DNA of 64,000 nucleotides, taken from NCBI RefSeq assembly GCF_964355755.1, contig NC_092673.1:17047648-17111647 (forward strand). Reading direction: 5' to 3'. Each line of letters begins with the position of its first letter. The first letter of the stretch is position 1. The position numbers and the translations under genes were made by a program. The notes beneath the pieces were generated by a model. The model searched no databases. It saw only the letters and a list, made by a program, of their open reading frames with translations, and had not been told where the DNA came from. This stretch comes from Antedon mediterranea. Taxonomy: Eukaryota > Animalia > Echinodermata. This document shows, one piece after another, positions 4,334 to 40,206 of this stretch.

Positions 4334-4465
4334 TTATTTTCTCTAAACTGTGTTTCTAACAAACCATAATCATACACCATGTTGAGCAGGAACAATTTTC
4401 ATACAAGCATATCATCTTTTTTCGCTGAAAATGTCTGTTTACAACGTTTGTTTAAGTCAAAATAA

Positions 4466-5693: not shown

Positions 5694-5859
5694 AATTGTT
5701 AATTCCTGCCGAAATATATGCCAGAGGTGCAGATGCAATTAAGATATATAAAGATGAGCTAGAAAATGGTGAAATTGCAGTTGTAAATGCAAGGTGTATG
5801 TTCCTTGGAAAAGAAGGTGTAGGCAAGACTAGTTGTGTAAAGGCTATGCTTGGAGATAG
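5694..5859 (+). CDS. Roc1 exon: pre-Roc helix and P-loop (LLIPAEIYARGADAIKIYKDELENGEIAVVNARCMFLGKEGVGKTSCVKAMLGD)
   Basis: Acceptor ttag at 5693, donor gtaaaa at 5860, GxxxxGKT motif. Phase-1 start implies upstream exon(s). Confidence 0.9.
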
Positions 5860-11800: not shown

Positions 11801-14800
11801 TTTTTGTCATCAACAAAGATAACTTCATCTTACAAAATTTGCAATCATCTTAATTTGGACATACTGTACTATGAAACCTTCACTGGTCTAATGTTAGACA
11901 CCAATCTATTGATATGCTGGCCATGTCATTTTTTCTCAAATAGTTTCTAATCTTTACCATTGCACATTATTCGCATAATGCCTTTTAAATGTAATTTAGA
12001 GTTAAATTTTGTTGTATTCTAATATCCGAGTAACACTTTATGTAAGTATTTATTTTTTATCATTAAAAAATATGTTTTTGTATTACTGTACTCGGTAGAT
12101 AATATACTGTATATAAGAATGAAGATTAGATTGATCACCAAGCTATGCTATGAAAACAGTTTTTCTTTCTATACAACTACTTGGTGTATTTGATGCACAA
12201 ATTTTACCTCAAATTGTGGGTGTGTCTTATACACAGGTCACTTCTTCACGCACACCAAAAAGCCACACAAAGTTAACACTACAGCAGTAGCCTACAACAA
12301 CTCTTACTGTAGGCCTAGCTAGTTCTAATTTTATTGCAATAATGTCTTGCATAGAGGGTCGATTACTACATAGTGCATTAGATATTCTACCTAGGCCTTC
12401 ACCTATTCTTTACTACTCTGAACTTGTGTGTGCGTAGCTAGATCAAATAAAACACAATTATGGCAAAGTCCACTAATTACGGTGATTATCACGTTTTAAT
12501 TACACTTGATACTGTGGTTTATTAAATTACATCCCTATGTTAACAGTCACATATTTCTGTAATCATATAGACAATAGTTTATACATCAAGTGTCATCTAA
12601 AAGAACTTGTTTTTAAAGTGCTAATAAGCTTCCCCTAAGTTCATATTTGTATTGTACAACCGTCAGTGCTGGCACATGGTTAGTGTCCTACAGACTAGTA
12701 TTGACATGCATTTTTATAATAGACTTAGTTCAAAATTAATAATGATATTGCTGGTTTATTACCAGCCCTGGAAACTTATCATTTGAATTGATTTAAATCA
12801 AATGGTCACACACACAGTAACAAGGTATATATTTAAATAATATATGCAATTAAAGTAACTTAATTATGATTGTTATTAGACATAGATACTGTAGATAGGC
12901 TAAGCCCAACCACACAGTGCATTGTAACTGAAGAAATATGGGTATTTCCCTTTTCACATACTGATTACGATGTATTAATAGCTGGCCCAAACCAAACTGA
13001 AACTGATATATTGGGAAGAATAAACTATATTTAAACAGATTTTCTAACTGCAAAATTAGAAAAATTAATTTGACATCCAAGTCATTGCATTAAGATTCAA
13101 GAACATAATTCCAATTTATAGAGATAATAAATTATTTAATTCATCACAAAGAGTAAAGCTAGAGTTTAGCTTTACATTCAAGTAGGGTAGTGTAGTTTAG
13201 TGGTAATGTGCTTGCCTTCCAATCCCAAAATATGGGGTTCAATCCTGACTCTTCCAACTCCACTCCCTGACCCTCAAGTTTATGCTTGCTGTTAGATGTC
13301 TATGAAATAAGACCAAAAAAAAAAAAAAAAATTATTTTACTTTGTTCACTCTCACAAATGTGTTCCTCTAAATATTATTTTGTTATCAGTCGAAAAAAAT
13401 ATTCCATTTGCTGTTGCTGTTCATGGGAGAGACTTTAAGGAAGCATACAATGAAGCCTCGAAAGAAGGATCCGTCAAAATCAATCTTGGAATGCTTAAAG
13501 TAATTTAGTATATAGTATAAGAATGTATATGAAACATAGGTTGTATTTTTGCAAAGGGTTACCTTGGACAACATACTGTACCAGTATATATCTGTCTATA
13601 TATCAAGATGTGTCATCACTATCTTGTTTATATTGAAGTGGATTCTATGAATAGTATTGGTACAGTATTATAATTTATGGTATATCTTAAATCCTGTTGA
13701 ACCAAAGTTTTAGAACATAATATTGTGGCTACTGTAATGTTAAATTTAACTGAGGCTAAATTTCTAAAAAACCAGTACTATGGTCAGATTTAGACTTCCA
13801 AGGAGTGAGTGGCTTATATTGATTAATTATCTCCTGTACAGTACACCATGTTGGCTGTAAAGTCTTGTGGTTTAAGTGGTCAATTTCACTTTTTCACAGA
13901 CCTGCAATATGATACACTGCATTTTGTCAATCTATATATATAAATTATGGTTAATTCTGACATAGGCGAGCACAATGCAAAAACTTCGGTACAAATCTCC
14001 GCCTTGGATACCTACCTGATCTATCTCAGATGTACCGCGAAACGTAGATTTGATAACATTAGTTTTCACATCGACACTATTGTTCCATATTTCTATCTTA
14101 GGAAGATATTATAAAGAGTTTTTTACGAAAATTTATGATTTCAAAAGTATATTTTCAACTCAATTTCAATTCTTCGCAGGTCAAAGTAATTTCCGGGTTC
14201 ACCTTGCAACAACCTGGTTTCAACTATTTTCTCTCTTTTATACACAAGGGAGCAGTTGAAATAATAGATTTGACCCTTAAGGTGACTGGAAACAGGCACT
14301 TTCCATCAATCAATACAGTGTCCCTTTGGAAGAAGGAAGACAAAAACCGATAGTAGGACTATAGCTTAAGTTGCATAGCCATTTAAGGTTTTTGTTTATT
14401 TTAGGAACGGACCGCGCGTGTGTGAAGGTACAGTAGTTAAAAAATAAAAATTATACTGAAAATTAATAAAGATCAAATTAAATATAGGTCATAAAGAATC
14501 GGAATATATTGTGGGAAATAGTATTATAAAATTACATAGGGAGATTTGATGATAAGACATTTTGTTTAAAATCGAGTGAAATCCCGATAGTTGATTGAGT
14601 AAGCTGGCAGGAATAACTGTAGGCTATCTGTGTCCTGTTAGGACCGAGATGTCTGCCCATGTTGCAAGCCGTAATGTCTTCTTTCTTGGGCCCACTCTAT
14701 CACGGCAGTTGGTTTCAAAAGATGTTTAAATTAAATAATGTATTAATAATTATTAGGATGGTATTTATTTGAATAAACGCCTCTCCAATAAAACATCACT

Positions 14801-17800
14801 TTGAATAATAATCATTATATATTCATCGCACTGTTATCTACAATTTACCAAGCATTTGTTATTCGTTTTTACCACTTTTCATATCTGTTAGAGAATTCCA
14901 TTTGATTATAAATGTTCCCTCGAATAAGCACCCTCCTCAAATGAACTCCGCCTCCCCACCTCCGCCCGATAAGGGCCCTACCAAACAATAAACACTATAC
15001 TTTAAAATGTTATTAATCATCTAAAACACTGTGAAACAGAGTAGTTTAGTTTTACGAATGTCAAGCATTTTCAATAATGGTAACCGACAGAAAACGTACA
15101 AGGAGAACATTTTTATCATTCCGAGAACCATCGTCTACACTTCCTAGAGGGGGAGCGAGCGAACGAAGCGAGCTCACCCTCTAGTATTCTTAAATAAAGT
15201 CTAGCCAAAAATATGATTAGCAAACACTAGACTTTGTTGTTTTCTTAATCTATCCATTATCATCAGTCGGATTTTTTAAATTAACAATTCAGTTATCATA
15301 TTAAAATAATATATTGTTATCATGGCCACTGATCCCATAGTTTTACAAGTCTTTTTGCAATGCAGATCGGTTTATTTCTTGAAATGTTGTAAACAAGGTC
15401 GTGATTATAGAAATGAAATTATTTGCACCATTCCACGAATATAAAAACATTCACTATTTGTTTTATATAACATCTAAGTAGATTCATGCATTTCATTTAA
15501 ATTGTCATCTTAATGGGATTGTCCACTGAGTAGGGGTTGGCCGTAGTGGTAAAACATATATTGCCCTTTGCTTTGCAGGGGCTTACCAAAAGGGGCTCTA
15601 CTGTATTATACATGAACATTAATAGCTTGCTGAATTAATTGCCATTTGAAGTCATTGCATTCATTGCTTTAAACATATTTTAATTTATAGATAATTATTT
15701 ATCACAAAAGAAAACAGTTATTGATTTTTTTATTTCTTAGACTTATATGGCATGGTTGGTTTATCAGATGAGAATATTCCATCTGCTATTACTGCTCATG
15801 GTACAGATGTTCAGGAAGTGTACACTAAGGCATTGACTGAGGGATCTGTCAAAATCAATCTTGGAATGCTTAAAGTGATTGGGCCGGAAGGAGTAGGTAA
15901 AACATGCCTCATAAATGCTTGTCTTGGAAAGGAGTAAGTAATAGTTAAAGGACAGTGAAATGAACTATGAACTATGCGAGTTAACTATTAAAAAAATATG
16001 ATTCATTTTAATAACCAATTCCCTAATATCGCAGCCTTAAGAGTAACTCAAGTTCACTAATGGTTTCAAATAATTTTCACTTCAAATTTAATTCCAAGCA
16101 TAATGTTTACAGCACTTAAAAGTGACCCAAGTTCATTATTGGTTTCAAATGATTTTCACTTCAGATTTAACCCCAAACATGATGTTACAGATGGAATAGC
16201 AGTGATAAGAACTGTAAGCACAACATGGACAGAAGATTATGACGATAGTGGTAAACATAAATATATTTAGATTTTCATCCCTCTTGCAGTGAATTATGAT
16301 AAAATATTGAAAGATAAACTGGAGATCAATACCACTACTGACACACAGTAGTATATTGTTGGATACTATGTTAATGTTGATATGAACAGTCGTGTAACTG
16401 GCTGATTTCTGCATGATTTTTTTTTTACATATTAAATATTGTTACTCCTGATCTTTTCTGATGCAAAACATTTGATAGTTTGCTTCTTTCAGGATTGTAT
16501 TTCATGCAATTTACATTATCAAGTAGTTTTAAGAGTGCTTGTCACCAAAAATCAGACATATTCGTAATTTAGTGGCAAGGGTCAAAATTTCGAATTGGCT
16601 CATATTTTGCACATTGGTAGACCTTGATGTAAGTAAATCTGATGTGTAGTTTGTTTGGTAAAATATCGCTTAGTTTTCGAGAAAATCGAAAAATAACGAT
16701 TTTCGGCCAATTTTGTTAATTTTTGGTGTATAATTTACATTAAGTGTAACAGCCTCTGGAAGCCAAATTTTGCAACCTAGCGTTTTAATATTTTACACTT
16801 ATGTTAACTAGCATCTTGACAATAATTTAGTAAAGTTTCAAAAAATTAAATGAAATTCTAATATTTTTACTAATTAATTACTAATTAGCGTATATAAAAC
16901 TCTTTAAAAAGTAGGGTAAAAACAAACGCGTTTTTTTTCATGTGCGACGAATTTTTTTTTAATAAAAAAATCGTCAATCTACTGTTTAGATACTAATATT
17001 TATGAATCAAGTAAAAACAATTTGGGGAAACTATTTTCCGCTCCGCGCCAGAGCCACAAAGTTGTAAGAAATTCAAAGATTTTATCTGTCGGCAAGATCA
17101 ATCAGTTGTACCTATTGTTCTCTATTTACAGATTTAAGGTAAATTTTACTACGAGAAACAAACTTTAAAGGTAAACTGAAAGGTCCTGAATAATTTGGAA
17201 TTACGATTTAATATAAAAACATCTAAAAATAAATTTCTAGTCAAATTTAAACGACTAACCCATGAAATTAAGCAATTACTATCTGAACTCAATAGTATAA
17301 CTCGCTTAGCTTCATCACCTGTTATATTTTCCACTAAGTGAATTTATTCTTATTATTATTATAATATAATAATAATAATATTATTATTTTTTGCACTATA
17401 CGCGCGCATGCGCAGTTTATTTTTATCAACAAAGTGTTCCCTTTGACGTGCGCGTATACGCGAAAATGTTTGATTTGCGCGAATAATTTCGCCTAGTGGA
17501 AAACAGGCTGATAATGTTCTTATCTTCTCATATAGGGAGTATTCGCACAAGCACGTTAACGCTATTTTCCAAGCTCCGCCCACTTTGTAAACAACTTGCT
17601 GTGCATGCGCAAGCATTACGAAAAACTTTAGTTACGTGCGTCGAGAACCTTATTTTTAAAAAATAGCGTAAATGAAAACGTTAACCAAAACATGATTAAA
17701 CATGCCTGGCTAGGCTTAGTCTCTATAAACCCAAGGTATTCCATGATTTGTTTTAATACGTGTGGCGTATGTTGCGTGCGCTACACATGCGTTGCGTTCT

Positions 17801-20800
17801 ACACTTCCCGTCGAAGCGCGAAATCAAAACGAACAAGTACGTTAACGCAAATGTTCACTGAACTCTGTTGTTATGCAAATGAGTAGAATGTTGACATCCG
17901 ATAACGTTCATGTGCTCGTGCGAAATTTCATAATAATTCGTAGCCTAAACAATAACTTGTTTGTAAACTTGTAAACCATTGTTTCATCCCTTCGCTTTAT
18001 TAAAAATTTACAGAATCGTCCCACATATTAAATTGTTATTTTAAAGAATTCTTACAGACATAGTTTTACCTTCATATACCTTAATCACTCGAGCAACTGC
18101 ACATGGAAACCATCTTTCCAAGCAAATCAATGTATGGCTTCTTGCGCTTTATGGTTATATCTGTGGTATCAAGTTCAAGAGAAGTACACATTTCTTGCAA
18201 CAGTGGCAAAGAGAATCTGGAGAGTTTTTCTTGAGCTTTCAGTTCACAAATATTATGCATTCAAACATTATTGGCTGCTACAAGCCTATTGTGTCCAGTA
18301 CGGTTTGCGACAAAAGTTGAATTTCTCTTTCCTTTTCCGTTTTTGAATCGTCTCCATTTTCTTCGACTTCGTCACCATCTTCATTACTATCGTAATCATC
18401 ATCTTCGTCATCATCATCATCATGAACGGCTGCATCTGTCCTCCTTTTTTTAGCCAAGTGTGAGAAAAAACTTGCAATCTGCTGTTAAAAATTCAGTCTT
18501 GCTACTAAATAGATGTGAACCATCGCTGTGCCTGGCCGATCTCATCTCTCGTGAGACATCACATGGATCAGCTTTCTGTCCCGTCTGCTCTCCAGCGTCA
18601 AAAACATGAATAAGGTAGGTTTTCTGTGGTACAGAAAATCGGGGTTTTTTTGCAGAGGACTTTAACGCCCAGCCCATTTTCAGTTTGGGGCCAATGTCAA
18701 ACCGTGGCAAATCGTTGGTTCTTGTTGGTTCTGGATTTTTAGAAGTACCCTCTTCTAGTTGTGTTGATTAATTTCATTGCCCTGTCATAAAGTGTTTCAT
18801 GTTCTAGTGCGTTCTTGTGATTTTCATAATCTAAGTGTTTCTCTAGGGAAGAGTACCTCTGATATGACCTAATGCAACCTTGTTCGCGACAAAAGAACAG
18901 TTTGCTGAGGGTGCCAGGACTTTTCTATTTGTTCGTAGTCTTTTATATCAGCTTGTTCTTCATGAGATGTCTTGGCTTGTATTCTTGCTTTTACTGCAAT
19001 AGATGATACTTGATTTATTTTAATCAGACGTTGTATCTCGGTTATGAATTAAATTGGGTAGCTTCGAAGGCACACAGAATTTACTCAAAAGTAGATTTTG
19101 TCCTGCACCAACACCATACGCCATCCACACCTTCATGGACCTGCTTCCATACTCTATGTTGTTGATGTGACTCACGCCTTTTATTTCCATTTCCCTGCTG
19201 CACAAATAGTACCACTCACTATCGATGCCTGTAAACCTAAACATGTATCTGTGTGCAGCGATTTCCTTCTGGCATGCTTGTAAAGGTAGGACTTCAGTGC
19301 TCTGTTTGCGGTCTTTTCTATCGAATCCACAAGCTCCGCCGACAACCGATTTAAAAGAACATTAAAGCCATCAGACAATAATTATATATAAGAATTATTT
19401 TCAACACGTCTCTACATTGTAAGACATAAACTAAAATGGATAACAAATCTGTTCCGTTGTCAACGTCAATGAAGATATCGTTATCTATCGAATATACGCA
19501 GTAAAGTGTTTTGTCTACTGTGGTTAATGTTTTGAAACATTCTCGTTGAGTAAGTTCGACCAGGTTCGACAAACAGGAAAACGATAACAAGTTAAAACAA
19601 ATTTGTTTTTCAGTTTTATCCTATAAACTATGAGAGGATGGAATAATTTATAATAATGTGGTTTGACAAAGAATAAGCGAGTGATTTTTAGTTAATTGCT
19701 TAATTTCGTATATTGGTTAGTGATTGAAATTTTACCAGAAACGTATTTTTAGTTTGTGTTTAAATTGAAACTTAATTCAAAATTTATCTTTCAAGTTTGT
19801 TTCTCGTAATAAAAGTTTGGCTTAATTCGACTTAGATTGCTAAATAGAGAACAATAGGTACATCTGATTGATCTTGCCGACAGATAAAATCTTTGAATTT
19901 CTTACAACTTTGTGGCTCTGGCGCGGAGTGCAAAATAGTTTCCCCAAATTTTTTTTACTTGATTCATAAATATTAGTATCTAAACTTTAGATTGATGACT
20001 TTTTTATTTTACAAAAATTCGTCGCACATGAAAAAAAAAACCGTTTGTTTTTACCCTACTTTTTAAGAGTTTTATATATGCTAATTAGTAATTAATTAGT
20101 CAAAATCTTAAAATTTCATCAAATTTTTTGAAACTTTACTAAATTATTGTCAAGATGCTAGTTAACGCAAGTGTAAAATATTAAAACGCTAGGTTGCTAC
20201 GTTTGGCTTCCAGAGGCTGTTAAACTTAATGTAAAGTATACACCAAAAATTAACAAAATTGGCCGAAAATCGTTATTTTTCGATTTTCTCAAAAACTAAG
20301 CGATATTTTACCAAACAATCTACACATCAGGTTTACTTAGATCAAGGTCTACCAATGTGCAAAATATGAGCCAATTCGAAATTTTGACCCTTGCCACCTA
20401 ATGTTTGATTTTTAATGACTGGCTCTCTTAAAGTGGTAACCTAATAATCAACTATTATTCACTTAAATCTAGAACCTAGAGAAATAAATAACTTTGTTTT
20501 GTTATTTTCAGGTAATCCCTCAAAACAGTTTACAAAATTTGTCGCTGATAAAATGAGAACAATGACTGAAAAAGTATGTCAACAACATTTTATTAAAAAC
20601 ATTAAAATAATACAAAAGGCATATATACTATTTTTTATTTTAAAGATATCAATCTACTTACTAAATCAGGTCTAGTAGACTAGATTGACATCTTTCCACA
20701 AAAAAAAATATTACACTACGTGGATGAATGAGAAAATTCAAATCCGCATTTATAATATAATATATACTGTACTATATTTATTACTATTACCGGTATTATT

Positions 20801-26800: not shown

Positions 26801-29800
26801 GCTCTGTTGTTGATATGGTACTATATACCGTCTGATATTATCTGATGTGCTTTCCATCACAAATAAAAATCACTTCTCTATCTACTAGCTTTGTTGCAAA
26901 TGAGTTGAATAAGCTTCAAGTTTAATTGTGGCTAAAATAATTAAATTGTATGATAGTTTTTTTATAATATATATAAATAGAATTTTTTTTTTTTCAGGAT
27001 GAACGTAAACATCATTGGACCAATCTCCAATTCATATTATCTTACATCCTGTCAGTTTATTCTCATAGTCGTGATATAAGAAAAAACAAAGACAAGAGAG
27101 TTCACGAACCAACTATCCTTATTGTGGGTACACATAAGGCTGAGCTTGGTGGAACTGAAGAAGAACAAAATGCTGAGGTAATACTGTTTCTATTTTTACG
27201 TTTTAGCCACAACCAAGAATACATTGCAGGTCTATATTAGAAACTGAGTACGGGAGTAGTGTATCAATTAATTTGATTACTTAAGTCTATCCTGCAATTA
27301 ATAAAAGTGGTAGTCCAGAGTTACAAAAAAGTTTTTGAATATTACTTTAATAAATGACATTAATTGACCCATGTTATGATATAAATATATATTTTTTGTT
27401 ATTAGGCAAAATCAAAATTTGAAAAGCTTAAACATGCACTTGGAGAGAAACTGAAAGTTCATGTGTATAACACCTATTTTGCCATCGAAAACAGTAAAGA
27501 AACAACAGATGAGAGCTTTAGCAAACTCAAAAAGGTTATTGATGAGCTTATGGAAACTTTAGAAAGGCCTGTTCCTTTGAAGTGGATGCGTTTTCGATGT
27601 GACATACATAAACTAAGGAGAGAAAAACACTTTTCTTTGTGTCATGTTGAAGAGGTAAATTAAATTTAATGTTTTGTTTTCGGTAGTAATAATAGAATCT
27701 AAAAAAGCATAAACAAAATAATTTTCCCACTATTAAAAAACAATTAATGTTAGTAAATATAATAATATTGATTAGTAATATGATCCTATCCTAATCATGT
27801 TAGTATGGTTTCTTATCTGAGCCAGACCACTAAAAAACCTAGTAATATTTATGGAATATTCATTGCTATGTTGCCATTCTGTGAGAAAGAAATGCTGTAT
27901 AATCCCCCTTGGCTATGTGAGAGTGGCATTTTCCTTCAGATCCAACATTATGCAGTAAATGACAAAAAATGAACTTTTCTATATGGTAATTGTACATCAA
28001 AATATTTCGTGCTGTAAAGCGTCGTTTCACAAAGTATGGCCCGCAGCCCGAAACAGAATGTTTCAGCATGTAAGATCCTTTATTTTAACATAAACTTTGC
28101 GGAATACTACTGTAAATGACAGAAATAATGTTATAAATGACGTATACCTACCTATGATTTTATTTTTTTTCTTTAGCTCAAAAAGCTAGCAAGTAAGAAT
28201 GGTATTGCAGATGAAAAACAACAATCAACCCTTCTTAACTTCCTGTATGATCTTGGTGAAATTGTTTACAGGCCTGACAACAAATTATTAGAAGATAAAG
28301 CGGTGTTAGATCCGATGCGGCTTGTTAAAATTGTTACTGCATTTGTAACAGTCATTAAACAAGAAGATCCAGTAAGTAGGCTCATAAAAATATTAATTCA
28401 GTGTTCCTTGGGGAAATAATAGGCACATGTGAATTCCTATATTAGTCATGTATCAAATGCAATATCTGCAAGTTACCTTATACAATAGTTTAAATTTGAG
28501 TGGTATATTGTATATATATGTAATTTAAATATATTTGTTTGTTTTTTTTAGCCGGCCATGGATATTGATGCCTTTGCTAATCTTGACAAGGGCATACTGG
28601 AGGAAGACTTGTTGCGAGAATTATGGAAAGAGCATAAAGTTGACGAAGGAAAGAATTTTAAGTTTCTTGTAGCACTGATGATCCAATTAGGTTTCATTTG
28701 TGAGAGAAAGACAACCAGCAGCCAAGATGTGGCAAGTACATCTACAGTATGTTTTGTTAAGTTTCTATTTCTAACATGTTATGTTTTGCATGAAGCTAAT
28801 GTGAAAAAAACGATTTTTTATATGATACATAATTGGTAAAATTTTACATACAATTTCTAATTATTTGTAGCGTTATGACATATTTTGATTAAACTTTCTG
28901 CTGAAAGATGTTTTTAACATGTACATGAAATTAGTTTTCTTAAAAGAAATTTAAATGGCATTTTTACAAATCAACAATTTCAGGAATCTGTTGGAAAGCA
29001 ATCATTTTTTGTGCCACTACGGCTTGCTTTCAAGACATCAAGTGAAGTGAAAGCAGTGCCTGATGAATTTCCAGCTATCAGTATCTATTACGACTTTAAG
29101 GGATATCTGCCAGATGTATTGTTTCCATATATGATTATTGATTTCCTCAACAAATTTCAAAAGAAAGACGTTGACCCAATACTGTCATATAATCATGCTG
29201 AACTTTACTTCGACCAAGATCATCATCTGACCTTATCTCTTGTCAAATTTGTGACTACGGAGGATGAAAGAAAGTTCTTGTTAAAGGTACTGTATCATAT
29301 AATTTGTTGTGAATAAGTCATAATCTAAACATAAACTCAAATTCAAATATCAAAACATCACTTTTCTTCTTTTTTTCAGGTGACTATTAAAAGAACAAAT
29401 GCTCCTAATGAAGCGAGTAATGAAGAACCTTCTTCTGAAGCATGTAAAGAGGTTTGTTATCATTTCATATATCAGTTTGAAGAAGTATATGATTTTGTAT
29501 AGATATTTTTGTTGATATCTATCTTGTATTATATAACACCTATATAAATTCCTGTCATTTGATTGGACGAATGTGGGTCACATGGCGTGCAATAGTACGC
29601 ACTATTCAACGATCGTTAAATAGTACTTTTTGAAACATTTTTGTGTACGAAAAAAAAACGTCTAGATGTTATATAAAACAAATAATGAATGTTTATGAGT
29701 GCAATGGTACAAATAATGGCACGAGGTGAATGATGAAAGGTTATATCAACAAATTTCATTGTATTTGACTGGTGTTTTCAATAATAAAAAAACAGCTGAC

Positions 29801-32800
29801 TATATTGCTAAGATGAAAATCTACTTATAGAATTAAACTTGATGTGGAACATACTTTTTCATTTTAATTTGCTTCAGTTAACATTATTAATTAAATATGA
29901 ATGATTATTCACAATTGCCTTATATAGCATTACATCTTTAAAAAATCAATGATATAATCTTCATATGATATAAATTTTAAACACCTTAAAGTACAGTTGT
30001 CAAAACTCAAACGTAATTCATTTTTAAAGCTGCCAGTCAATAGCATGCCTACAAACTCTGAATTGTTATTATTTTAAGACCAAAGTATGGTTATGAACTT
30101 GCAATTGAAACTTTAAATTTGGTAAGATTTTATAACATACAGTACATTGTGAACTATGTACAATGTTTGTATAATAGTGATACTTTTTTGTTTTACTTTT
30201 CCCTTTATAACTATATTGTATTGTAAATGTTTAGTGAACACTACATTTTAAGAGTGTATGCTGCTGATTCAAAGTTGCTACATTGTGTTATATTCTCAAT
30301 TACAGTTAACTGCTTGTTCTTGGAAATCAACATTCAATTTGTATCTTTAGGTTTTGTTAACAATCCAGAAGTCAATTGAACCTTCTAAAGATGGTGGTAG
30401 AAGAGGGATTCAATATGAGAGATGCATGCTTTGTGATGTATGTAGTGATAATACATCAGAAAGGAAGCACATTCAAAATCTTGATGACTTCCAGTACGAG
30501 AAATTGACATGCACCAAAACTGGCAAGTCTGTTACGATGGATGTTAAACGTTACAAGCAGCTATTTGTAGGTAAGAGTAATAACAGACAAGTTTATTTTC
30601 ATTTATTTGACAAATAAATAACAACAGTGTATAAACAAATAGACTCAATTGATAAACAAGATTATGATAACTTCTAGAGTCAGCAGTCCCATCGTCTTAA
30701 AATTAAATATATCTATAATAATAATAGTCAAATGACAATGTGTAAATTATCAAAATGATTGACACAGTACTCATATTCGGAAAATGATCTCATAATCGTG
30801 TCGAGCATAGCTCATCACCGAAAGTTACATATTTTTTAGTTGTATGAAAAAATGTCTCTGGCAGGATTCGAACCTGCGACTTCTTGCTTACGGGGCAAAT
30901 ATCATACTATTAGACCACAGACACCCTCACAATCAGTGGAGACTAACTAGTCATTGATCTCATGGCAGTCTTAATAAATATTATAGGATTGGCATAATTA
31001 TATCTATACTCTCACAATAGAATTGTTAGAGGTTAGGAATTGGACTAGCATGTGAGAGGCATGGGTTTGTATACTAGGCAACATGCTTTAGTCTCATTCT
31101 ATAATCCTTCAGACGGGATGTAAAGCTGTTGGTCCTGGGTACATAAAATGTAAATGTCTACTATAAAAATATGGTACACTTTATAAAAGGCACAAGGACA
31201 TTGTTCAGATGGATTCATTCATATTTGTTAAGAACAATGACAATCGATAGAAGTTCTAAAGATTTTCACACCTATAACATTTCTAAAAGCGGGAAATGCA
31301 CTTTCCTGAATTTTGGAAGGCAAAAACACACATACAAAAGCAAATATAATTTTACAGTATCAATGTATACACATCTGAAAGGATACAGACAATTTGGAAG
31401 GCACAAATACACACACACAAAATGTATGTAGACATAAGGATACAGACAATTTGGAAGTCACAAACACACACACACAAAATGTATGTAGACATAAGGATAC
31501 AGACAATTTGGAAGCCACAAACACACACACACAAAATGTATGTAGACATTAGGATACAGACAATTTGGAAGGCACAAATACACACACACAAAATGTATGT
31601 AGACATAAGGATACAGACAATTTGGAAGGCACAAACACACACACAAAATGTATGTAGACATAAGGATACAGACAATTTGGAAGCCACAAACACACACACA
31701 CAAAATGTATGTAGACATAAGGATACAGACAATTTGGAAGTCACAAACACACACACACAAAATGTATGTAGACATAAGGATACAGACAATTTGGAAGCCA
31801 CAAACACACACACACAAAATGTATGTAGACATTAGGATACAGACAATTTGGAAGGCACAAATACACACACACAAAATGTATGTAGACATAAGGATACAGA
31901 CAATTTGGAAGGCACAAATACACACACACAAAATGTATGTAGACATAAGGATACAGACAATTTGGAAGTCACAAACACACACACACAAAATGTATGTAGA
32001 CATAAGGATACAGACAATTTGGAAGCCACAAACACACACACACAAAATGTATGTAGACATTAGGATACAGACAATTTGGAAGGCACAAATACACACACAC
32101 AAAATGTATGTAGACATAAGGATACAGACAATTTGGAAGGCACAAACACACACACAAAATGTATGTAGACATAAGGATACAGACAATTTGGAAGCCACAA
32201 ACACACACACACAAAATGTATGTAGACATAAGGATACAGACAATTTGGAAGTCACAAACACACACACACAAAATGTATGTAGACATAAGGATACAGACAT
32301 TTTGGAAGTCACAAACACACACACACAAAATGTATGTAGACATTAGGATACAGACAATTTGGAAGCCACAAACACACACACACAAAATGTATGTAGACAT
32401 AAGGATACAGACAATTTGGAAGTCACAAACACACACACAAAATGTATGTAGACATTAGGATACAGACAATTTGGAAGTCACAAACACACACACAAAATGT
32501 ATGTAGACATAAGGATACAGACAATTTGGAAGTCACAAACACACACACACAAAATGTATGTAGACATAAGGATACAGACAATTTGGAAGGCACAAATACA
32601 CACACACAAAATGTATGTAGACATTAGGATACAGACAATTTGGAAGTCACAAACACACACACACAAAATGTATGTAGACATTAGGATACAGACATTTTGG
32701 AAGTCACAAACACACACACACAAAATGTATGTAGACATAAGGATACAGACAATTTGGAAGTCACAAACACACACACACAAAATGTATGTAGACATAAGGA

Positions 32801-35800
32801 TACAGACAATTTGGAAGTCACAAACACACACACAAAATGTATGTAGACATAAGGATACAGACAATTTGGAAGGCACAAACACACACACACAAAATGTATG
32901 TAGACATAAGGATACAGACATTTTGGAAGTCACAAACACACACACACAAAATGTATGTAGACATAAGGATACAGACAATTTGGAAGCAACAAACACACAC
33001 ACACAAAATGTATGTAGACATAAGGATACAGACAATTTGGAAGGCACAAACACACACACACAAAATGTATGTAGACATAAGGATACAGACAATTTGGAAG
33101 GCACAAATACACACACACAAAATGTATGTAGACATAAGGATACAGACAATTTGGAAGGCACAAATACACACACACAAAATGTATGTAGACATAAGGATAC
33201 AGACATTTTCCAAAGGTAGTTTAGCTTTTCAATTTTTAGTACCGATCTTAACCAATTTAAATTTGTTTTAAGTTTTATTTCTATTGAAAGAGTAAGTTAT
33301 TATTTTAAGATAAAACAAGAACTACACAATCATGACATTTCACAAACTAACAAAAGCTATGACATTTTAAAAAAACATTTTTGTTTTATTTCAGAGAACC
33401 GGTGGAAAGTTATAACAGTGTTTAGTTTTCTAATTGGAGTTTTTGCTGTCTTGATAAATATACTTGATGGACCAGCAAGAATGGCAACTTGCATTGGTGT
33501 TCTTGTATTAATTCTTGTTGGATTCTGGTGTCTACATCATCAATTGTCCAAGTCTTGTACTCAGGAAGGTTATAAATCAATGGATGTTAAACGATACAAG
33601 AGGCTATTTGGAGGTAAAAATAATGAAACAAGTTTAATTTAATTTGTCATTTTTTACCAAAAAAAACAAATAAGTACAGTAACAACATTACAAAATAAAT
33701 GAAAATAGAAAACAAACTGTTAAAGTAAACAGTAGTACCAGTAGTAGTACTATCAGAATCATTAGTGATAATCTATACATTGTTACAACATGCTGCTATT
33801 AGCTGTGATATCTTCATTCCTCTTACCAGTAGTAGTACTATCAGAATCATTATTGATAATCTATACATTGTTACAGCATGCTGCTATTAGCTGTGATATC
33901 TTCATTCCTCTTACCAGTAGTAGTACTATCAGAATCATTATTGATAATCTATACATTGTTACAACATGCTGCTATTAGCTGTGATATCTTCATTCCTCTT
34001 ACCAGTAGTAGTACTATCAGAATCATTAATGATAATCTATACATTGTTACAGCATGCTGCTATTAGCTGTGATATCTTCATTCCTCTTACCAGTAGTAGT
34101 ACTATCAGAATCATTATTGATAATCTATACATTGTTACAGCATGCTGCTATTAGCTGTGATATCTTCATTCCTCTTACCAGTAGTAGTACTATCAGAATC
34201 ATTATTGATAATCTATACATTGTTACAACATGCTGCTATTAGCTGTGATATCTTCATTCCTCTTACCAGTAGTAGTACTATCAGAATCATTATTGTGATA
34301 ATCTATACATTGTTACAACATGCTGATATTAGCTGTGATATCTTGATTCCTCTTACCAGTAGTAGTACTATCAGAATCATTATTGTGATAATCTATACAT
34401 TGTTACAACATGCTGCTATTAGCTGTGATATCTTCATTCCTCTTACCAGTAGTAGTACTATCAGAATCATTATTGATAATCTATACATTGTTACAGCATG
34501 CTGCTATTAGCTGTGATATCTTCATTCCTCTTACCGGTAGTAGTACTATCAGAATCATTATTGATAATCTATACATTGTTACAACATGCTGCTATTAGCT
34601 GTGATATCTTCATTCCTCTTACCAGTAGTAGTACTATCAGAATCATTATTGATAATCTATACATTGTTACAACATGCTGCTATTAGCTGTGATATCTTCA
34701 TTCCTCTTACCAGTAGTAGTACTATCAGAATCATTATTGTGATAATCTATACATTGTTACAACATGCTGCTATTAGCTGTGATATCTTCATTCCTCTTAC
34801 CAATAGTAGTACTATCAGAATCATTATTGATAATCTATACATTGTTACAACATGCTGCTATTAGCTGTGATATCTTCATTCCTCTTACCAGTAGTAGTAC
34901 TATCAGAATCATTATTGATAATCTATACATTGTTACAACATGCTGCTATTAGCTGTGATATCTTCATTCCTCTTACCAGTAGTAGTACTATCAGAATCAT
35001 TATTGATAATCTATACATTGTTACAACATGCTGCTATTAGCTGTGATATCTTCATTCCTCTTATCAGTAGTAGTACTATCAGAATCATTATTGATAATCT
35101 ATACATTGTTACAACATGCTGCTATTAACTGTGATATCTTCATTCCTCTTACCAGTAGTAGTACTATCGGAATCATTATTGATAATCTATACATTGTTAC
35201 AACATGCTGCTATTAGCTGTGATATCTTGATTCCTCTTACCAGTAGTAGTACTATCAGAATCATTATTGATAATCTATACATTGTTACAACATGCTGCTA
35301 TTAGCTGTGATATCTTGATTCCTCTTACCAGTAGTAGTAGTATCAGAATCATTATTGATAATCTATACATTGTTACAACATGCTGCTATTAGCTGTGATA
35401 TCTTCATTCCTCTTACCAGTAGTAGTACTATCAGAATCATTATTGATAATCTATACATTGTTACAACATGCTGCTATTAGCTGTGATATCTTGATTCCTC
35501 TTACCAGTAGTAGTACTATCAGAATCATTATTGATAATCTATACATTGTTACAACATGCTGCTATTAGCTGTGATATCTTCATTCCTCTTACCGGTAGTA
35601 GTACTATCAGAATCATTATTGATAATCTATACATTGTTACAACATGCTGCTATTAGCTGTGATATCTTGATTCCTCTTACCAGTAGTAGTACTATCAGAA
35701 TCATTATTGATAATCTATACATTGTTACAACATGCTGCTATTAGCTGTGATATCTTCATTCCTCTTACCAGTAGTAGTACTATCAGAATCATTATTGATA

Positions 35801-38800
35801 ATCTATACATTGTTACAACATGCTGCTATTAGCTGTGATATCTTCATTCCTCTTATCAGTAGTAGTACTATCAGAATCATTATTGATAATCTATACATTG
35901 TTACAACATGCTGCTATTAACTGTGATATCTTCATTCCTCTTACCAGTAGTAGTACTATCAGAATCATTATTGATAATCTATACATTGTTACAACATGCT
36001 GCTATTAGCTGTGATATCTTGATTCCTCTTACCAGTAGTAGTACTATCAGAATCATTATTGATAATCTATACATTGTTACAACATGCTGCTATTAGCTGT
36101 GATATCTTGATTCCTCTTACCAGTAGTAGTAGTATCAGAATCATTATTGATAATCTATACATTGTTACAACATGCTGCTATTAGCTGTGATATCTTCATT
36201 CCTCTTACCAGTAGTAGTACTATCAGAATCATTATTGATAATCTATACATTGTTACAACATGCTGCTATTAGCTGTGATATCTTGATTCCTCTTACCAGT
36301 AGTAGTACTATCAGAATCATTATTGATAATCTATACATTGTTACAACATGCTGCTATTAGCTGTGATATCTTCATTCCTCTTACCGGTAGTAGTACTATC
36401 AGAATCATTATTGATAATCTATACATTGTTACAACATGCTGCTATTAGCTGTGATATCTTGATTCCTCTTACCAGTAGTAGTACTATCAGAATCATTATT
36501 GATAATCTATACATTGTTACAACATGCTGCTATTAGCTGTGATATCTTCATTCCTCTTATCAGTAGTAGTACTATCAGAATCATTATTGATAATCTATAC
36601 ATTGTTACAACATGCTGCTATTAGCTGTGATATCTTGATTCCTCTTACCAGTAGTAGTAGTATCAGAATCATTATTGATAATCTATACATTGTTACAACA
36701 TGCTGCTATTAGCTGTGATATCTTCATTCCTCTTACCAGTAGTAGTACTATCAGAATCATTATTGATAATCTATACATTGTTACAACATGCTGCTATTAG
36801 CTGTGATATCTTGATTCCTCTTACCAGTAGTAGTACTATCAGAATCATTATTGATAATCTATACATTGTTACAACATGCTGCTATTAGCTGTGATATCTT
36901 CATTCCTCTTACCAGTAGTAGTACTATCAGAATCATTATTGATAATCTATACATTGTTACAACATGCTGCTATTAGCTGTGATATCTTCATTCCTCTTAC
37001 CGGTAGTAGTACTATCAGAATCATTATTGATAATCTATACATTGTTACAACATGCTGCTATTAGCTGTGATATCTTGATTCCTCGTACCAGTAGTAGTAC
37101 TATCAGAATCATTATTGATAATCTATACATTGTTACAACATGCTGCTATTAGCTGTGATATCTTCATTCCTCTTATCAGTAGTAGTACTATCAGAATCAT
37201 TATTGATAATCTATACATTGTTACAACATGCTGCTATTGGCTGTGATATCTTCATTCCTCTTACCAGTAGTAGTACTATCAGAATCATTATTGATAATCT
37301 ATACATTGTTACAACATGCTGCTATATAGCTGTGATATAGTGTAAAGCGGAAAAAAATAATTAGGTTATCATTTAGAATAAAATGATCATCTATTGTTTT
37401 TGTATGAAATCTTTGTTATTCTTCTTCTTTCACTACACTATTTTGTGTAACAATTTTCTCAAAAAGTTAAATGTCAATGATGACAAAAATTTCACATTGT
37501 CTTTCAAACAATTTAACTTAATCCTAATAAGCTTTTCAGCGTGATCACTCATCCGTGACATTTATACGCCATTTTGTGAAATCACATTATCAATCATATC
37601 TCCATAACTTGTCATATGATATCAATAAAATTCACTACACATAGTGAAGTGTAAAAATATTAGCAAATAAAAACGCACACATACCCAGTGTCATGCGCGA
37701 GAAATTGCACGTTAACAATTTAAAAAGCTGAAAATTACATTTTTATCAATTTACTGTGCAAAAACATGTTTTTGCGCGCACAATACTTAAGAAATTACTA
37801 ATTGTTTATACAAATCACATTCTACTCACCCTCCTTAGTACATTCACCACATTTTAGTCCATTCTGATCTAAAATAACGCTATAAAAGCGACAAAATGAC
37901 AAAATGCGCACATTAATGCAAAAAGTGCATACAATTATTTTTAAGGCATTTTTAAACGTGAATTTAAAAATTAGGTTTTTTTTTCTTTCGTCATACATTG
38001 TTACATTAAAAAGACCAGATCTTGTTTATTTGGACTCGATATGCTTTCTCAATTAATTCACTATCTTTTGAAATTGTCATCTTTAAGTTTATTTTGTTAA
38101 TGTCATCATACCAAAAAATTATAAGATGAGGTGTGTCACGTAGTTTCACGTATGCTACACTGTACACAAAAATAAAGCATATACTCCTAATTATATAATT
38201 AAATTCTAGTTTTTATTTTATTTGCAGACAAAAGTGGGCCAAAAGAAAGAAAAGGAAGAGAAACGGATCAAGGTAATTGATTGAAATATGTTGGAAAATA
38301 AGTGGAGAGAGAAAATAAAAGCAAATTTAATATTTCGACAAAATGACAAAATGCGCACATTAATTTCAAAAAGTGCATACAATTATTTTTAAGGCATTTT
38401 TAAACGTGAATTTAAAAATTAGGTTTTTTTTTCTTTCGTCATACATTATTACATTAAAAAGACCAGATCTTGTTTATTTGGACTCGATATGCTTTCTCAA
38501 TTAATTCACTATCTTTTGAAATTGTCATCTTTGAGTTTATTTTGTTAATGTCATCATACCAACAAATTATAAGATGAGGTGTGTCACGTAGTTTCACGTA
38601 TGCTACACTGTACACAAAAATAAAGCATATACTCCTAATTATATAATTAAATTCTAGTTTTTATTTTATTTGCAGACAAAAGTGGGCCAAAAGAAAGAAA
38701 AGGAAGAGAAACGGATCAAGGTAATTGATTGAAATATGTTGGAAAATAAGTGGAGAGAGAAAATAAAAGCAAATTTAATATTTACAAATTGGTCTCAAAC

Positions 38801-40206
38801 TGGTTTTTTTTTTCAGAATTAGAGGAAACAATAATGATACATATCTCTTGGTATCTTTATTTAATTTCAATCTTTAAACATAAAATATACAAATAAAAAT
38901 CCATAGCAGCCAAAAAATTTAAATTGGGGATTTTTTTACAAACACCTTAATATAAATTTCACATACTTTCAAATAAATATTATATAATAATAATAATGAT
39001 AATAGTTCATTCTTATATAAGCAAGCTCTCAATGTGCCGAACATTATTACCCTAGTCATTTTTTTGTTGATCAAACGCGTATGGAAACATGCTTCCATAA
39101 TGCAGCTAGTAATCAGCGCAAAGTTGTGTCTTGATCTAACCGGGTACCCATTTATACACCTGGGTGGAGAGAGGCAAACGTAAGTAAAGTATCTTGCCTA
39201 CGGATACAAGCAATGGGAAGAGAGTTGGATTCGAACCTTGGTCTCACGATCAGTAGTCCAACGTCCAACACACTGCGAGACACGCCTCACATTATATATA
39301 CGGTATTAAACAATTTAAGAATTACACACACATAAAAGCAAACAAAAGACACAAATAATTTGTGCAATAAATGTGTGTGTGTGTTATTGTTGTTTATATT
39401 TAAGAAGAATTTCTATTGTTATTTTATTATGATACCTGACAAATAAAGCTTTTCATATTTCAGTACTTTTCTGTAATTTTATTTGCAGGAAACACAATGG
39501 CAGATTCTGAATCTTTGAACAATTTCCGAGACCTAAAAGCTGGTCTCAGTAGGTGCTTTGATGGTGATAGATACCATTGGTTAAGGTTTCTACTATTTGA
39601 TAAGTTGGATGTCGGTGACATTACAAATCAAGATTTCAATGGAAATAACTTACTCAATGCACTTGAAGACAAAGATTTCATCTCACCAACCAATGTTAAC
39701 TTGCTGTTAGAGATTGTGAATACATCTGAAATGGCACAAGCCAAAGATCTTGTATCAAAGTATATGAGTGAAAACAAAGTTCAGAATAGACATACTGGTA
39801 AAACCAAGTTGTCGTCTTACAGAAAACGACTGTTCAAGGCCCTGAAACAAGTTGACCCAGATGCATTACGTAATGTTACTGCTTACTATAAATTGACAAA
39901 ATATAACTTCTCCAATGTATGGAATGCAGTTCTCCGTCTGGAGATTGAGCAAGAATTATCTGATGATTTAGACAAAATACAGATGTTTGCAGGTCGTCTT
40001 AGCAAAGTAGCAAGTAACATACTACTTGGTATGCATATATTCTTTGTTTTGTATTAAGTTATTTGTAAAGTTATTGAATCTTTCATTTTTAAACAGTTTC
40101 AGTAATTGTAATTTGATTCAAATTAATAATATCTGGTTTACTTTATTTATTAAAGTTAATTATTTACATTAAATGATTATTTATAGGCGATAGTGAGAAG
40201 AAATGA
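5694..40206 (+). CDS. Spliced Roco-family gene (5'-incomplete): Roc-COR / Roc-COR / 2-TM hairpin / tandem DED-like; about 30 exons, about 1,680 aa inside the window
   Basis: Hand-assembled GT-AG exons join in one open frame. Module 1 is 1977 nt in 12 exons and module 2 is 2199 nt in 13 exons, followed by exons of 219, 45, 45 and 540 nt and a TGA at 40204-40206. There are two sets of G1-G4 motifs (GKEGVGKT/STDGI/WDFAGQ/THMD and GPEGVGKT/VTDGI/WDHGGQ/THKA), each followed by COR motifs (VPxKW, L[NY]D[AL]GxI, F[IV]PxR). Confidence 0.82.
6439..6539 (+). CDS. Roc1 exon with G2/switch I (NNSREPSTDGIVTTTVFQAKEDCSKWKRVKDVD)
   Basis: atag acceptor, gtaaga donor, STDGI motif, frame continuous. Confidence 0.88.
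7226..7294 (+). CDS. Roc1 exon (DVELTKKFLAHALAKNVDRKLKK)
   Basis: Polypyrimidine tract plus tag acceptor, gtttgc donor, phase 1-1. Not in the ORF track. Confidence 0.75.
7405..7541 (+). CDS. Roc1 exon with G3 (ITSIWDFAGQLDYYITHR)
   Basis: ttag acceptor, gtatgt donor, canonical Roc WDFAGQxxYYxTH. Confidence 0.92.
8180..8269 (+). CDS. Roc1 exon (FFLTNKVSYCVTFNVMDNLDKPAHPRDSSI)
   Basis: ttcag acceptor, gtaagt donor. 90 nt, the same size as paralogous exon 25479-25568. Confidence 0.88.
8353..8544 (+). CDS. Roc1 exon with G4 (PPICLVATHMD)
   Basis: ttag acceptor, gtaata donor, TH-x-D motif. Confidence 0.9.
8713..8955 (+). CDS. Roc1 end / COR1 start exon (YMVDN...VPVKWVDLQERL)
   Basis: aag acceptor, gtaaga donor, COR VPxxW motif. 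Confidence 0.88.
9090..9738. mobile_element. piggyBac-type MITE in an intron
   Basis: TTAA on both sides; 13-bp TIR cccattgactgcc / ggcagtcaatggg. Confidence 0.88.
9814..10008 (+). CDS. COR1 exon (AITYLNDAGIIMY...IVITNLHWMINILTKVI)
   Basis: ttag acceptor, gtaggt donor, COR L-x-D-x-G motif. 195 nt, like paralog 28177-28371. Confidence 0.88.
10158..10328 (+). CDS. COR1 exon (LWKKLDCEGVLEEKLLRYLWG...FVELMKVFRLL)
   Basis: atag acceptor, gtaggc donor, 57 codons open. Not in the ORF track. Confidence 0.85.
10464..10766 (+). CDS. COR1 exon (FFIPCRM...DFLPDAVYNTLVV...YALK)
   Basis: acag acceptor, gtatga donor. 303 nt, like paralog 28984-29286. Confidence 0.88.
11345..11449 (+). CDS. COR1 exon (LEISRWTDIKQ...QPSVCME)
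   Basis: acag acceptor, gtaaaa donor, 35 codons open. Confidence 0.78.
11532..11736 (+). CDS. COR1 terminal exon with Cys/His cluster (CTACDPYEHH...PC...MDTARIKHLF)
   Basis: ttag acceptor, gtaagt donor, ends in phase 1. Confidence 0.87.
13185..13331 (+). mobile_element. Short tRNA-derived SINE / retroposed tRNA-like sequence with poly-A tail
   Basis: A box tagtttagtggt, B box ggttcaatcc, poly(A) at about 13315-13331. Confidence 0.6.
13390..13508 (+). pseudogene. Truncated duplicate of the first Roc2 exon (EKNIPFAVAVHGRDFKEAYNEASKEGSVKINLGMLKVI*); possible alternative terminal exon
   Basis: Shares gtcaaaatcaatcttggaatgcttaaagt with about 15848-15876 and has a homologous ttatcag acceptor. 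The upstream intron (about 13080-13150) resembles 15650-15710. It stops just before the P-loop. Confidence 0.75.
15144..15185 (+). mobile_element. Helitron-like 3' end (hairpin plus CTAGT)
   Basis: ctagagggggag...cgaagcgagctcaccctctagt forms a GC-rich hairpin ending in CTAGT. The 5' end was not located. Confidence 0.45.
15741..15933 (+). CDS. Roc2 exon with P-loop (ENIPSAITAHG...KVIGPEGVGKTCLINACLGK)
   Basis: ttcttag acceptor, with an alternative in-frame ttatcag at 15767. gtaagt donor. Phase 1 is compatible with the exon ending at 11736. Confidence 0.9.
16165..16250 (+). CDS. Roc2 exon with G2 (FNPKHDVTDGIAVIRTVSTTWTEDYDDS)
   Basis: ttcag acceptor, gtaaac donor, TDGI motif. Confidence 0.87.
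16533..20427 (-). mobile_element. Sola3-like DNA transposon, internally deleted, with very long TIRs
   Basis: TTAA TSD (16529-16532, 20428-20431), GAG...CTC termini, about 600-750 bp inverted arms. Decayed protein fragments on the minus strand at about 18300-19330 (GWALK...RFS..QKTYL...GQKADP; INNIEY...VWMAYGVG). Confidence 0.8.
20512..20573 (+). CDS. Roc2 exon (GNPSKQFTKFVADKMRTMTEK)
   Basis: ttttcag acceptor, gtatgt donor, phase 1-0. Positional paralog of 7226-7294. Confidence 0.72.
20903..21110 (+). CDS. Asp-rich low-complexity exon within Roc2 (AVQRPPTDDDESEN...DDHDKQRN)
   Basis: gtag acceptor, gtaatg donor. Phase 0-1 exactly bridges the neighbouring exons; 69 codons without a stop. Confidence 0.7.
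21207..22821. mobile_element. TTAA-flanked TIR element (Kolobok-like MITE) hosting a Penelope fragment
   Basis: Perfect inverted ends ttaa-aatggacctgaaatggattttcgattt / aaatcgaaaatccatttcaggtccatt-ttaa. Confidence 0.8.
21625..22360 (+). mobile_element. Penelope-like retroelement fragment (decayed RT on +, inverted 3' end on -)
   Basis: KPPKSNVSKEERQVLYKLKKEPDILVLPADKGKATVVVD, PKIHK..PYRPII and VSHDVVSL, with frameshifts. The minus strand at about 21713-21760 reads RDEGGYKLSQVW (GIY-YIG C-terminus). Confidence 0.85.
23560..24062 (+). mobile_element. Decayed 3' end of an L2/CR1-group LINE
   Basis: ILYCGPK..W.SLP...SITSFKLNLK-like C-terminal RT signature, followed by a T-rich UTR and aataaa. 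Confidence 0.5.
24404..24549 (+). CDS. Roc2 exon with G3 (TFNIWDHGGQLIYHGIHR)
   Basis: tacag acceptor, gtaagt donor, DxxGQ motif. Confidence 0.88.
25479..25568 (+). CDS. Roc2 exon (MFMTLEALYIVVFDLSVNLEDRAIFIDANG)
   Basis: ttgcag acceptor, gtaagt donor, Roc ALYxVVFDLS strand. Confidence 0.9.
26620..26830 (-). mobile_element. Academ-type transposon protein fragment (XPG/PIN-like nuclease motif)
   Basis: Minus-strand translation NLQSSQEETDSRVILYCFYG...RIRSPDSDIFFILLHH shows the EE[AT]D[TS]R and SPD[TS]D acidic motifs. Family assignment is from memory of AcademX proteins. Confidence 0.6.
26998..27177 (+). CDS. Roc2 exon with variant G4 (PTILIVGTHKAEL)
   Basis: poly-T cag acceptor, gtaata donor, 60 codons open. 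Confidence 0.9.
27406..27654 (+). CDS. Roc2 end / COR2 start exon (YFAIENS...PVPLKWMRF)
   Basis: ttag acceptor, gtaaat donor, VPLKW motif. Confidence 0.88.
28177..28371 (+). CDS. COR2 exon (LLNFLYDLGEIVY...AVLDPMRLVKIV)
   Basis: tttag acceptor, gtaagt donor, COR FLxDLG and VLDP motifs. Not in the ORF track. Confidence 0.9.
28552..28746 (+). CDS. COR2 exon (KGILEEDLLRELWK...LVALMIQLGFIC)
   Basis: ttag acceptor, gtatgt donor. Paralog of 10158-10328. Confidence 0.88.
28984..29286 (+). CDS. COR2 exon (FFVPLRL...GYLPDVLFPYMII...FLLK)
   Basis: ttcag acceptor, gtactg donor, 303 nt. Confidence 0.88.
29380..29451 (+). CDS. COR2 exon (VTIKRTNAPNEASNEEPSSEACKE)
   Basis: ttcag acceptor, gtttgt donor. 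Paralog of 11345-11449 (ends CxE). Confidence 0.8.
30351..30570 (+). CDS. COR2 terminal exon with Cys/His cluster (LCDVC...KH...TC...MDVKRYKQLFV)
   Basis: tttag acceptor, gtaaga donor, ends in phase 1. Paralog of 11532-11736. Confidence 0.87.
30780..30925 (-). mobile_element. tRNA-derived SINE head
   Basis: Minus strand has A box tggtctaatag and B box ggttcgaatcc, then a T-run. No proper acceptor stem. Confidence 0.6.
31380..33210. repeat. 57-bp tandem satellite (about 32 copies) with an internal (CA)n
   Basis: Unit cacaaaatgtatgtagacataaggatacagacaatttggaagNcacaaa(ca)n gives the 19-aa periodic ORFs. Confidence 0.95.
33395..33613 (+). CDS. Symmetric cassette exon with two predicted transmembrane helices plus a duplicated COR tail (MDVKRYKRLFG)
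   Basis: ttcag acceptor, gtaaaa donor, 219 nt, phase 1-1. Hydrophobic stretches VITVFSFLIGVFAVLINIL and MATCIGVLVLILVGFWCL. Confidence 0.72.
33737..37338. repeat. 88-bp tandem satellite (about 41 copies)
   Basis: ORF starts recur every 88 bp. Unit accagtagtagtactatcagaatcattattgataatc...cctctt. Confidence 0.95.
38228..38272 (+). CDS. 45-nt linker micro-exon, copy 1 (DKSGPKERKGRETDQ)
   Basis: tttgcag acceptor, gtaatt donor, phase 1-1. Confidence 0.7.
38676..38720 (+). CDS. 45-nt linker micro-exon, copy 2 (identical to copy 1)
   Basis: Same splice sites, inside a tandem duplication of about 447 bp. Confidence 0.65.
38990..39292 (-). mobile_element. tRNA-derived SINE (CORE-like body) with (ATT)n tail
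   Basis: B box ggttcgaatcc on the minus strand. Body ggtacccatttatacacctgggtggagagaggca...gtaaagtatcttgcc is typical of invertebrate SINEs. Confidence 0.7.
39489..40028 (+). CDS. Exon encoding tandem death-effector-domain-like folds
   Basis: ttgcag acceptor, gtatgc donor, 540 nt, phase 1-1. DED-like pattern FRDLKAGLS...LRFLLFD...LLNALEDKDFISPTNVNLLLEIV...AKDLVSKY, then a second weaker unit SYRKRLFKALKQVD...AVLRLE. Confidence 0.8.

Follow-up and report, generated by a model that had tools for sequence, protein, structure and literature searches.

Two diverged Roc-COR modules and a predicted tandem death effector domain at a crinoid Roco locus

A locus of the crinoid Antedon mediterranea raises the question of whether two Roc-COR modules, a membrane hairpin and a pair of death effector domains (DEDs) can be encoded as a single protein, and, if so, how such a gene could have been put together. 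We addressed it in a 64,000-nucleotide stretch of genomic DNA (the window, to which all coordinates refer).

Exons and domains of the locus

We rebuilt the gene from the window sequence and obtained 30 exons, all with GT-AG boundaries, which join into one frame of 1656 aa on the forward strand between 5694 and 40206, with its stop codon at 40204-40206. The predicted chain consists of Roc-COR1, Roc-COR2, a predicted two-helix transmembrane (2-TM) hairpin and a tandem DED; the 12 exons of module 1 and 13 of module 2 are followed by exons of 219 nt (hydrophobic), 45 nt (linker) and 540 nt and by a short final exon (Table 1). Since the first exon begins in phase 1, the 5' end of the gene must be missing from the model. 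No ankyrin exon was found upstream in window positions 1-5693, and no additional family exon downstream in 40207-64000. Splice sites were scored with a matrix derived from those of the gene itself; two alternatives that would extend the frame, an acceptor at 40194 (score -5.0) and a candidate exon near 40910 (-12.0), both scored poorly and were rejected.

Table 1. Coordinates of the features of the locus in the window.
Feature	Position	Strand	Remarks
Roc-COR module 1 (type 1)	5694..11736	+	12 exons, 658 aa; 87% identical to module 1 of P0014
Module 1 exons, part 1	5694-5859, 6439-6539, 7226-7294, 7405-7541, 8180-8269, 8353-8544	+	
Module 1 exons, part 2	8713-8955, 9814-10008, 10158-10328, 10464-10766, 11345-11449, 11532-11736	+	
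Module 1 motifs			G1 GKEGVGKT; G3 DFAG; G4 THMD
Truncated copy of module-2-type first exon	13390..13508	+	81% identical over 108 nt to 15773-15880
Roc-COR module 2 (type 2)	15741..30570	+	13 exons, 723 aa; 73% identical to module 2 of P0014
Module 2 exons, part 1	15768 (or 15741)-15933, 16165-16250, 20512-20573, 20903-21110, 24404-24549, 25479-25568, 26998-27177	+	
Module 2 exons, part 2	27406-27654, 28177-28371, 28552-28746, 28984-29286, 29380-29451, 30351-30570	+	
Module 2 motifs			G1 GPEGVGKT; G3 DHGG; G4 THKA (no Asp)
Predicted two-helix membrane hairpin exon	33395..33613	+	hydropathy peaks 2.68 and 2.25
448-nt tandem duplication (98%)	37889..38783	+	two copies of 45-nt phase-1 linker exon; second 38676-38720
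Tandem death effector domain exon	39489..40028	+	179 aa; AlphaFold pLDDT 92.7, 35 sequences
Last coding exon with stop	40187..40206	+	rebuilt frame; end shared with NCBI model P0001

Single exons of the window matched the Pfam COR-A family twice, just under the gathering score (E 2e-7 and 3e-8), and gave weak Roc pieces and a weak DED match (E 0.006) below gathering. When Pfam was run on the NCBI models, Roc exceeded gathering in P0014, P0005 and P0007, and COR-A did so in P0001 and in P0014, where it covers two stretches. A profile of the family also matched the Roco protein of Chlorobium tepidum (CtRoco; 3dpu, E 8e-13) and LRRK2, the Parkinson's protein. According to the COR-A matches and the domain order, COR follows directly after Roc in both modules, and each Roc domain carries the G2 threonine alongside G1 and G3. 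Together with these motifs and the open frame, the matches bear out the initial annotation in describing two intact Roc-COR modules. A protein kinase domain was matched in none of the 19 exon pieces of the window, nor in P0001 or P0014; the 5' end of the locus lies outside the model.

The two Roc domains differ at G4, whose aspartate confers guanine specificity. Of the type-1 motifs, 25/25 end in Asp (three further domains gave no match); 22 of the 24 type-2 motifs have Gly or Ala there (one domain gave no match, and the locus contributes two entries, the window model and P0001). Loss of the aspartate is nevertheless a weak sign, because it is also absent from 45 of 82 other Roc motifs of the invertebrate type and present in the remaining 37. 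Within Roc2, 24-nt tandem repeats at 20903-21110 encode an Asp/Asn/His-rich insert that varies in length among the paralogs P0014 and P0042. Both COR domains end in a conserved Cys/His cluster (11532-11736 and 30351-30570), which may bind zinc.

Compared with each other, the modules are strongly diverged, as annotated, with 26% identity over 583 aligned positions (E 8e-44). Their intron positions do match: ten of the 11 internal introns of module 1 have a counterpart in module 2 in the same phase and no more than two alignment columns away, and the unmatched introns sit within the variable Roc insert. The exon pairs of identical size (90, 195 and 303 nt) are real, and choosing the acceptor at 15768 adds a fourth, of 166 nt. 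Each module begins and ends in phase 1.

The rest of the window contains mobile elements. An intron of module 2 holds 579-nt inverted repeats (91%) around 2.7 kb (16567-20402), likely a DNA transposon. Copia-like retrotransposon pieces (Pol_BBD, rve and RVT_2) lie on the reverse strand at 56907-62315 and are split by an RVT_1 element whose frame, at 58501-60105, encodes 535 aa; a weak match to the MADF DNA-binding domain (E 0.001) at 2292-2543, also on the reverse strand, is possibly a transposon remnant.

Proposed origin of the double gene

Is this arrangement found elsewhere? The DED exon retrieved 13 proteins, all of them NCBI models from Antedon mediterranea on one 36.2-Mb contig, while a module-1 exon retrieved 20, of which 16 are from Antedon (four contigs) and four from Anneissia japonica. 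None of these 20 is identical to module 1; the best, at 89%, is P0014 (XP_071947615), an NCBI prediction of 1681 aa from the same contig as the locus with the order ankyrin-RocCOR1-RocCOR2-TM and no DED. The model of P0014 has the same passage from Roc-COR1 into Roc-COR2, so the double module is no isolated case. In a partial protein, P0018, COR1 leads into the beginning of a type-2 Roc; P0042 is closely paralogous to module 2.

The shared intron positions had been taken as the trace of an old whole-module duplication at this gene. This interpretation failed in the trees (FastTree with 59 rows, modules shorter than 440 aa being left out, and IQ-TREE with 20 rows): the two modules belong to separate subfamilies that include single-module genes. 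Module 1 nests in both trees among stand-alone type-1 genes on other contigs, with the Anneissia proteins outside them, and module 2 nests, again in both, in a type-2 clade that comes mostly from the same contig. Forcing the five double-type modules into a single clade cost 985 log-likelihood units, and duplication in place was rejected (AU p 1.7e-42). The long branches of the amphioxus, Hondaea and P0122 modules make their deep placement unsure.

As judged from these sequence comparisons, the double gene arose by fusion of members of two old Roco subfamilies, each of which also occurs on its own; the duplication would be old and the fusion that joins the two subfamilies likely recent. We envisage that phase-1 exon shuffling put a type-1 module, normally part of an ankyrin-RocCOR-DED gene, in front of a type-2 module within a tandem Roco cluster. 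The double gene would then have been duplicated to give P0014 and perhaps P0042 and P0018, and a later recombination in the present copy would have brought a neighbouring type-2 gene's COR-end, linker and DED exons behind the terminal TM exon.

The module junction and the tail

The initial annotation spliced the two modules together in frame from 11736 to 15741. One open frame, canonical sites and the same junction in P0014 speak for this part of the claim; against it, no joint from 11736 to either 15741 or 15768 is among the 15 of 98 joints listed, and all modules are bounded by phase-1 introns, so that any tandem pair would be in frame whether or not it shared a transcript. Module 2 can begin at either of two in-frame acceptors. 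The one at 15768, which is modelled in P0014 at the equivalent position, yields an exon of the same size as the first exon of module 1, and is degraded in this copy (score -0.7, compared with 10.1 for 15741).

The locus could accordingly be read as two neighbouring single-module Roco genes, or as a broken-up locus, with the double protein an artefact of gene models built on phase-1 modules in a tandem cluster. The remnant exon at 13390-13508 suits this reading, as it combines a strong in-phase acceptor (score 10.6) with a stop at 13506-13508 and is a possible terminal or poison exon ending module 1; module 1 might also end by intron read-through, and the model of P0018 does read through the equivalent donor after COR1. 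An NCBI model identical to the locus, P0001 (XP_071948759), likewise begins only at 25485, inside Roc2. When short proteins lying across the COR1-Roc2 junction were sought, all 14 matches were NCBI Antedon models, none came from a transcript assembly, and P0018 was the only one to cover both sides.

Reads from four of the five sequencing runs that cover the region, aligned to 11300-16000 only and including paralogs at 85% likeness, bear on both readings. None of the runs is on record as RNA; we treat one, X1, as putative RNA, and its depth is RNA-like, at ~240-260 on the last COR1 exon vs 2-4 just after it. X1 gave a 320-nt contig that aligns exactly from 15768 to 15930, with extra unaligned letters on both sides, and bears P0014-type substitutions at 15803 and 15824, as a spliced paralog exon would. 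This spliced-looking contig, which starts at the 15768-equivalent acceptor and continues upstream, argues against separate genes, as do the absence of X1 cover at 13397-13398 within the remnant exon and the junction in P0014, itself a prediction. Much of the 4-kb intron between the modules is, moreover, high-copy repeat, with a depth of 10^4-10^5 over 13812-15224 in X2, X3 and X5. X1 has no cover at 15741-15759, all of its depth at position 15885 carries the paralog letter, and none of this copy's alleles is apparent among its reads over 11300-16000. An independent start at ATG 15752 was rejected as a conserved feature, since the ATG is absent from a paralog-like DNA contig (place 15754).

We consider separate genes rather unlikely. 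A single double Roc-COR transcript is quite probable for the gene family and somewhat favoured for this particular copy; for the full chain through to the DED the odds are about even.

Behind module 2, the exon annotated as 2-TM is indeed predicted to form a hydrophobic hairpin. The exon looks chimeric, since at its 3' side it repeats the closing stretch of the last COR2 exon together with the donor (49/59 nt identical). At a hydropathy threshold of 2.3, seven of 181 proteins were flagged, six of them with the segment near the C-terminus, and only at this locus does a hydrophobic segment precede a DED. The annotation of the next large exon as DED-DED-like was likewise supported. Foldseek placed caspase-8/cFLIP tandem-DED structures at the top for the AlphaFold model (TM 0.69-0.73), and VIA-align gave Z 15.4 for 4zbw, 13.5 for MC159, 12.3 for single DEDs and 9.9 for pyrin domains; the model superposes on the caspase-8 tandem DED with an rmsd of 2.4 A over 154 residues at 18% identity. 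With tandem DEDs in all the top ranks, the 179-aa exon is predicted to fold as two packed DEDs.

For the linker and DED the nearest sequences are P0002 and P0045 (82%), and for module 2 P0014 and P0042. We infer that recombination between two genes of the cluster made this tail, and the order of TM then DED looks like a recombinant special to this copy. Large minisatellites with units of 84 nt (2762-3856), 57 nt (31379-33209), 88 nt (33736-37338) and 89 nt (52092-56404) are found in the window; the TM exon lies between two of them, at the proposed recombination site.

The proposed switch and its relation to known systems

Our main reading, to which we give a probability of about 0.5, is that the locus holds two intact Roc-COR modules, one from each of two old subfamilies of crinoid Rocos, and likely encodes one membrane-anchored, GTP-controlled immune or cell-death switch, with the predicted tandem DED as its output. 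With a hairpin as the anchor, the two Roc-COR modules and the DEDs would all face the cytosol. By analogy with bacterial Roco proteins, nucleotide state would control pairing through COR: CtRoco is described as a dimer when empty or GDP-bound and a monomer with GTP (PMC5714945). Each module would most likely pair with its own type in another molecule, giving a two-valent scaffold that could cluster the DEDs and seed a FADD/caspase-8-like assembly. Roc1, with its canonical G4 aspartate, would be the main switch, and Roc2, which lacks it, may bind nucleotide differently. An immune role is suggested by analogy with the expanded AP-GTPase/Roco systems described in PMC8195603 and PMC3341825.

Alternatively, COR1 might fold against COR2 of the same chain; the resulting internal pseudo-dimer would imitate the Roco homodimer and gate the signal from the DEDs. 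In its favour, the C-terminal portion of COR is where Roco proteins, CtRoco among them, dimerise (PMC6337361), the G4 difference between the two Roc domains is what an asymmetric pair might show, and an amphioxus protein also has divergent modules that directly abut. We favour pairing between chains, like with like, because the modules evolved apart as single-module genes (they are only 26% identical, and their subfamilies have such genes on several contigs) and abut without a dedicated linker, the end of COR1 running directly into the pre-Roc segment. Internal folding thus seems distinctly unlikely; the fuller proposal, that crinoids fused two anciently diverged modules, one canonical and one without the G4 aspartate, into a membrane-tethered, single-chain asymmetric pseudo-dimer wired to a tandem DED, is likewise unlikely.

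The two modules together comprise 4149 coding nt in 25 exons with no stop or frameshift. In simulations of neutral substitution to approximately the terminal branch lengths, which ignored indels and splice sites, the frame stayed stop-free in 22/400 runs for module 1 and 2/400 for module 2. Since so few did, both modules have probably been under selection since the split from P0014, which says nothing on whether they are joined. That the double family is real and this copy a recent recombinant decaying without a full-length product, as might be suggested by a TM exon that looks chimeric, a second copy of the linker exon, the degraded acceptor at 15768, the lack of an ankyrin exon in the 5.7 kb upstream and the lack of any sign of its own alleles in X1, is very improbable given this intact coding sequence and the strong in-frame acceptor at 15741.

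The architecture thus appears, from sequence, to be real, unusual within the Roco family and new in detail, with the module junction a prediction. If it is correct, two different Roc-COR modules share one natural chain and each half could be mutated separately. The need for a dimer is debated for Roco GTPases such as LRRK2 (PMC6337361; PMC5714945); if the modules do form a pseudo-dimer, the protein would be a natural tethered Roco heterodimer for testing how dimerisation controls the GTPase, with an independent recurrence in amphioxus. If the modules are separate genes, the locus remains an ordinary member of the crinoid Roco-DED expansion. In any case it brings to light an extensive family of exon-shuffled Roco-DED genes in crinoids, which resembles an intracellular immune-receptor repertoire and of which we found no description in the literature searched.

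Searched with a profile, 1.84 billion representatives yielded 8231 matches at E 0.001, of which 150 were examined. Among the 181 proteins collected, COR is followed by another Roc in five, all predictions: P0014, P0018 (partial), P0142, P0150 and P0122. COR is followed by DED in ~40 of the 181, a set biased towards such proteins by the choice of queries. Roc-COR-DED would thus appear to be the usual arrangement of the family in crinoids, with the double form rare but recurrent. Other shuffled relatives carry a DED on a very large GTPase (P0013), four tandem-DED units before Roc (P0058), TAZ-KIX-RocCOR-DED (P0067) or DED-Macro-RocCOR-Death (P0069), and a Lingula protein, P0176, is RocCOR-caspase.

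The available text of the literature searched, including PMC11378527, PMC6337361, PMC3341825, PMC9334734, PMC4104024 and PMC8195603, yielded no description of two full Roc-COR modules in one chain; Marin's evolutionary papers may bear on this point. The 'duplicated ROC' of PMC3341825 refers, in the portion available, to duplicated loci and not to two modules per chain, and the accessible part of the PMC8195603 supplements has no COR+AP-GTPase or COR+APGTPase string.

How does the locus compare with known systems? Like the Roco proteins LRRK1/2, DAPK1, MFHAS1 and CtRoco, it has a Roc GTPase followed by COR-A and COR-B; unlike them, it has two such modules, no kinase, no LRR and a predicted membrane hairpin. 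DAPK1 carries ankyrin repeats. It has, besides Roc-COR, a death domain (PMC6337361), where the locus has a tandem DED. The modelled DED fold is that of caspase-8, cFLIP and MC159 (Z 15.4), from which the locus differs in having no caspase domain and in placing its DEDs at the C-terminus, behind the predicted hairpin. Two Roc and two COR-A domains per chain, as predicted here, are otherwise found in XP_071947615, XP_019630255, GBG34516 and P0122, all uncharacterised gene models. The Antedon paralog among them differs from the locus in its ankyrins, terminal TM and lack of a DED, and the amphioxus protein (P0142, Branchiostoma belcheri; LRR-RocCOR-RocCOR-GT4) in its LRRs and GT4 domain. The Hondaea fermentalgiana protein (P0150, GBG34516) is set apart by a TIR domain and by modules that are an internal duplication, 62% identical. 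Further close relatives in design are the lineage-expanded candidate immune Rocos and AP-GTPases of Ectocarpus, Trichoplax, sponge, brachiopod and sea urchin. Ectocarpus has Rocos with one or two C-terminal TM segments (PMC3341825), Trichoplax has 17 Rocos with CARD or death domains, three of them with an extra Ras-like domain (PMC4104024), and the Amphimedon sponge has an APGTPase+COR+DED+TRADDN+caspase protein (PMC8195603 supplement). These families, as far as the cited sources describe them, are clustered and exon-shuffled and have acquired death-fold or TM additions, as seen here.
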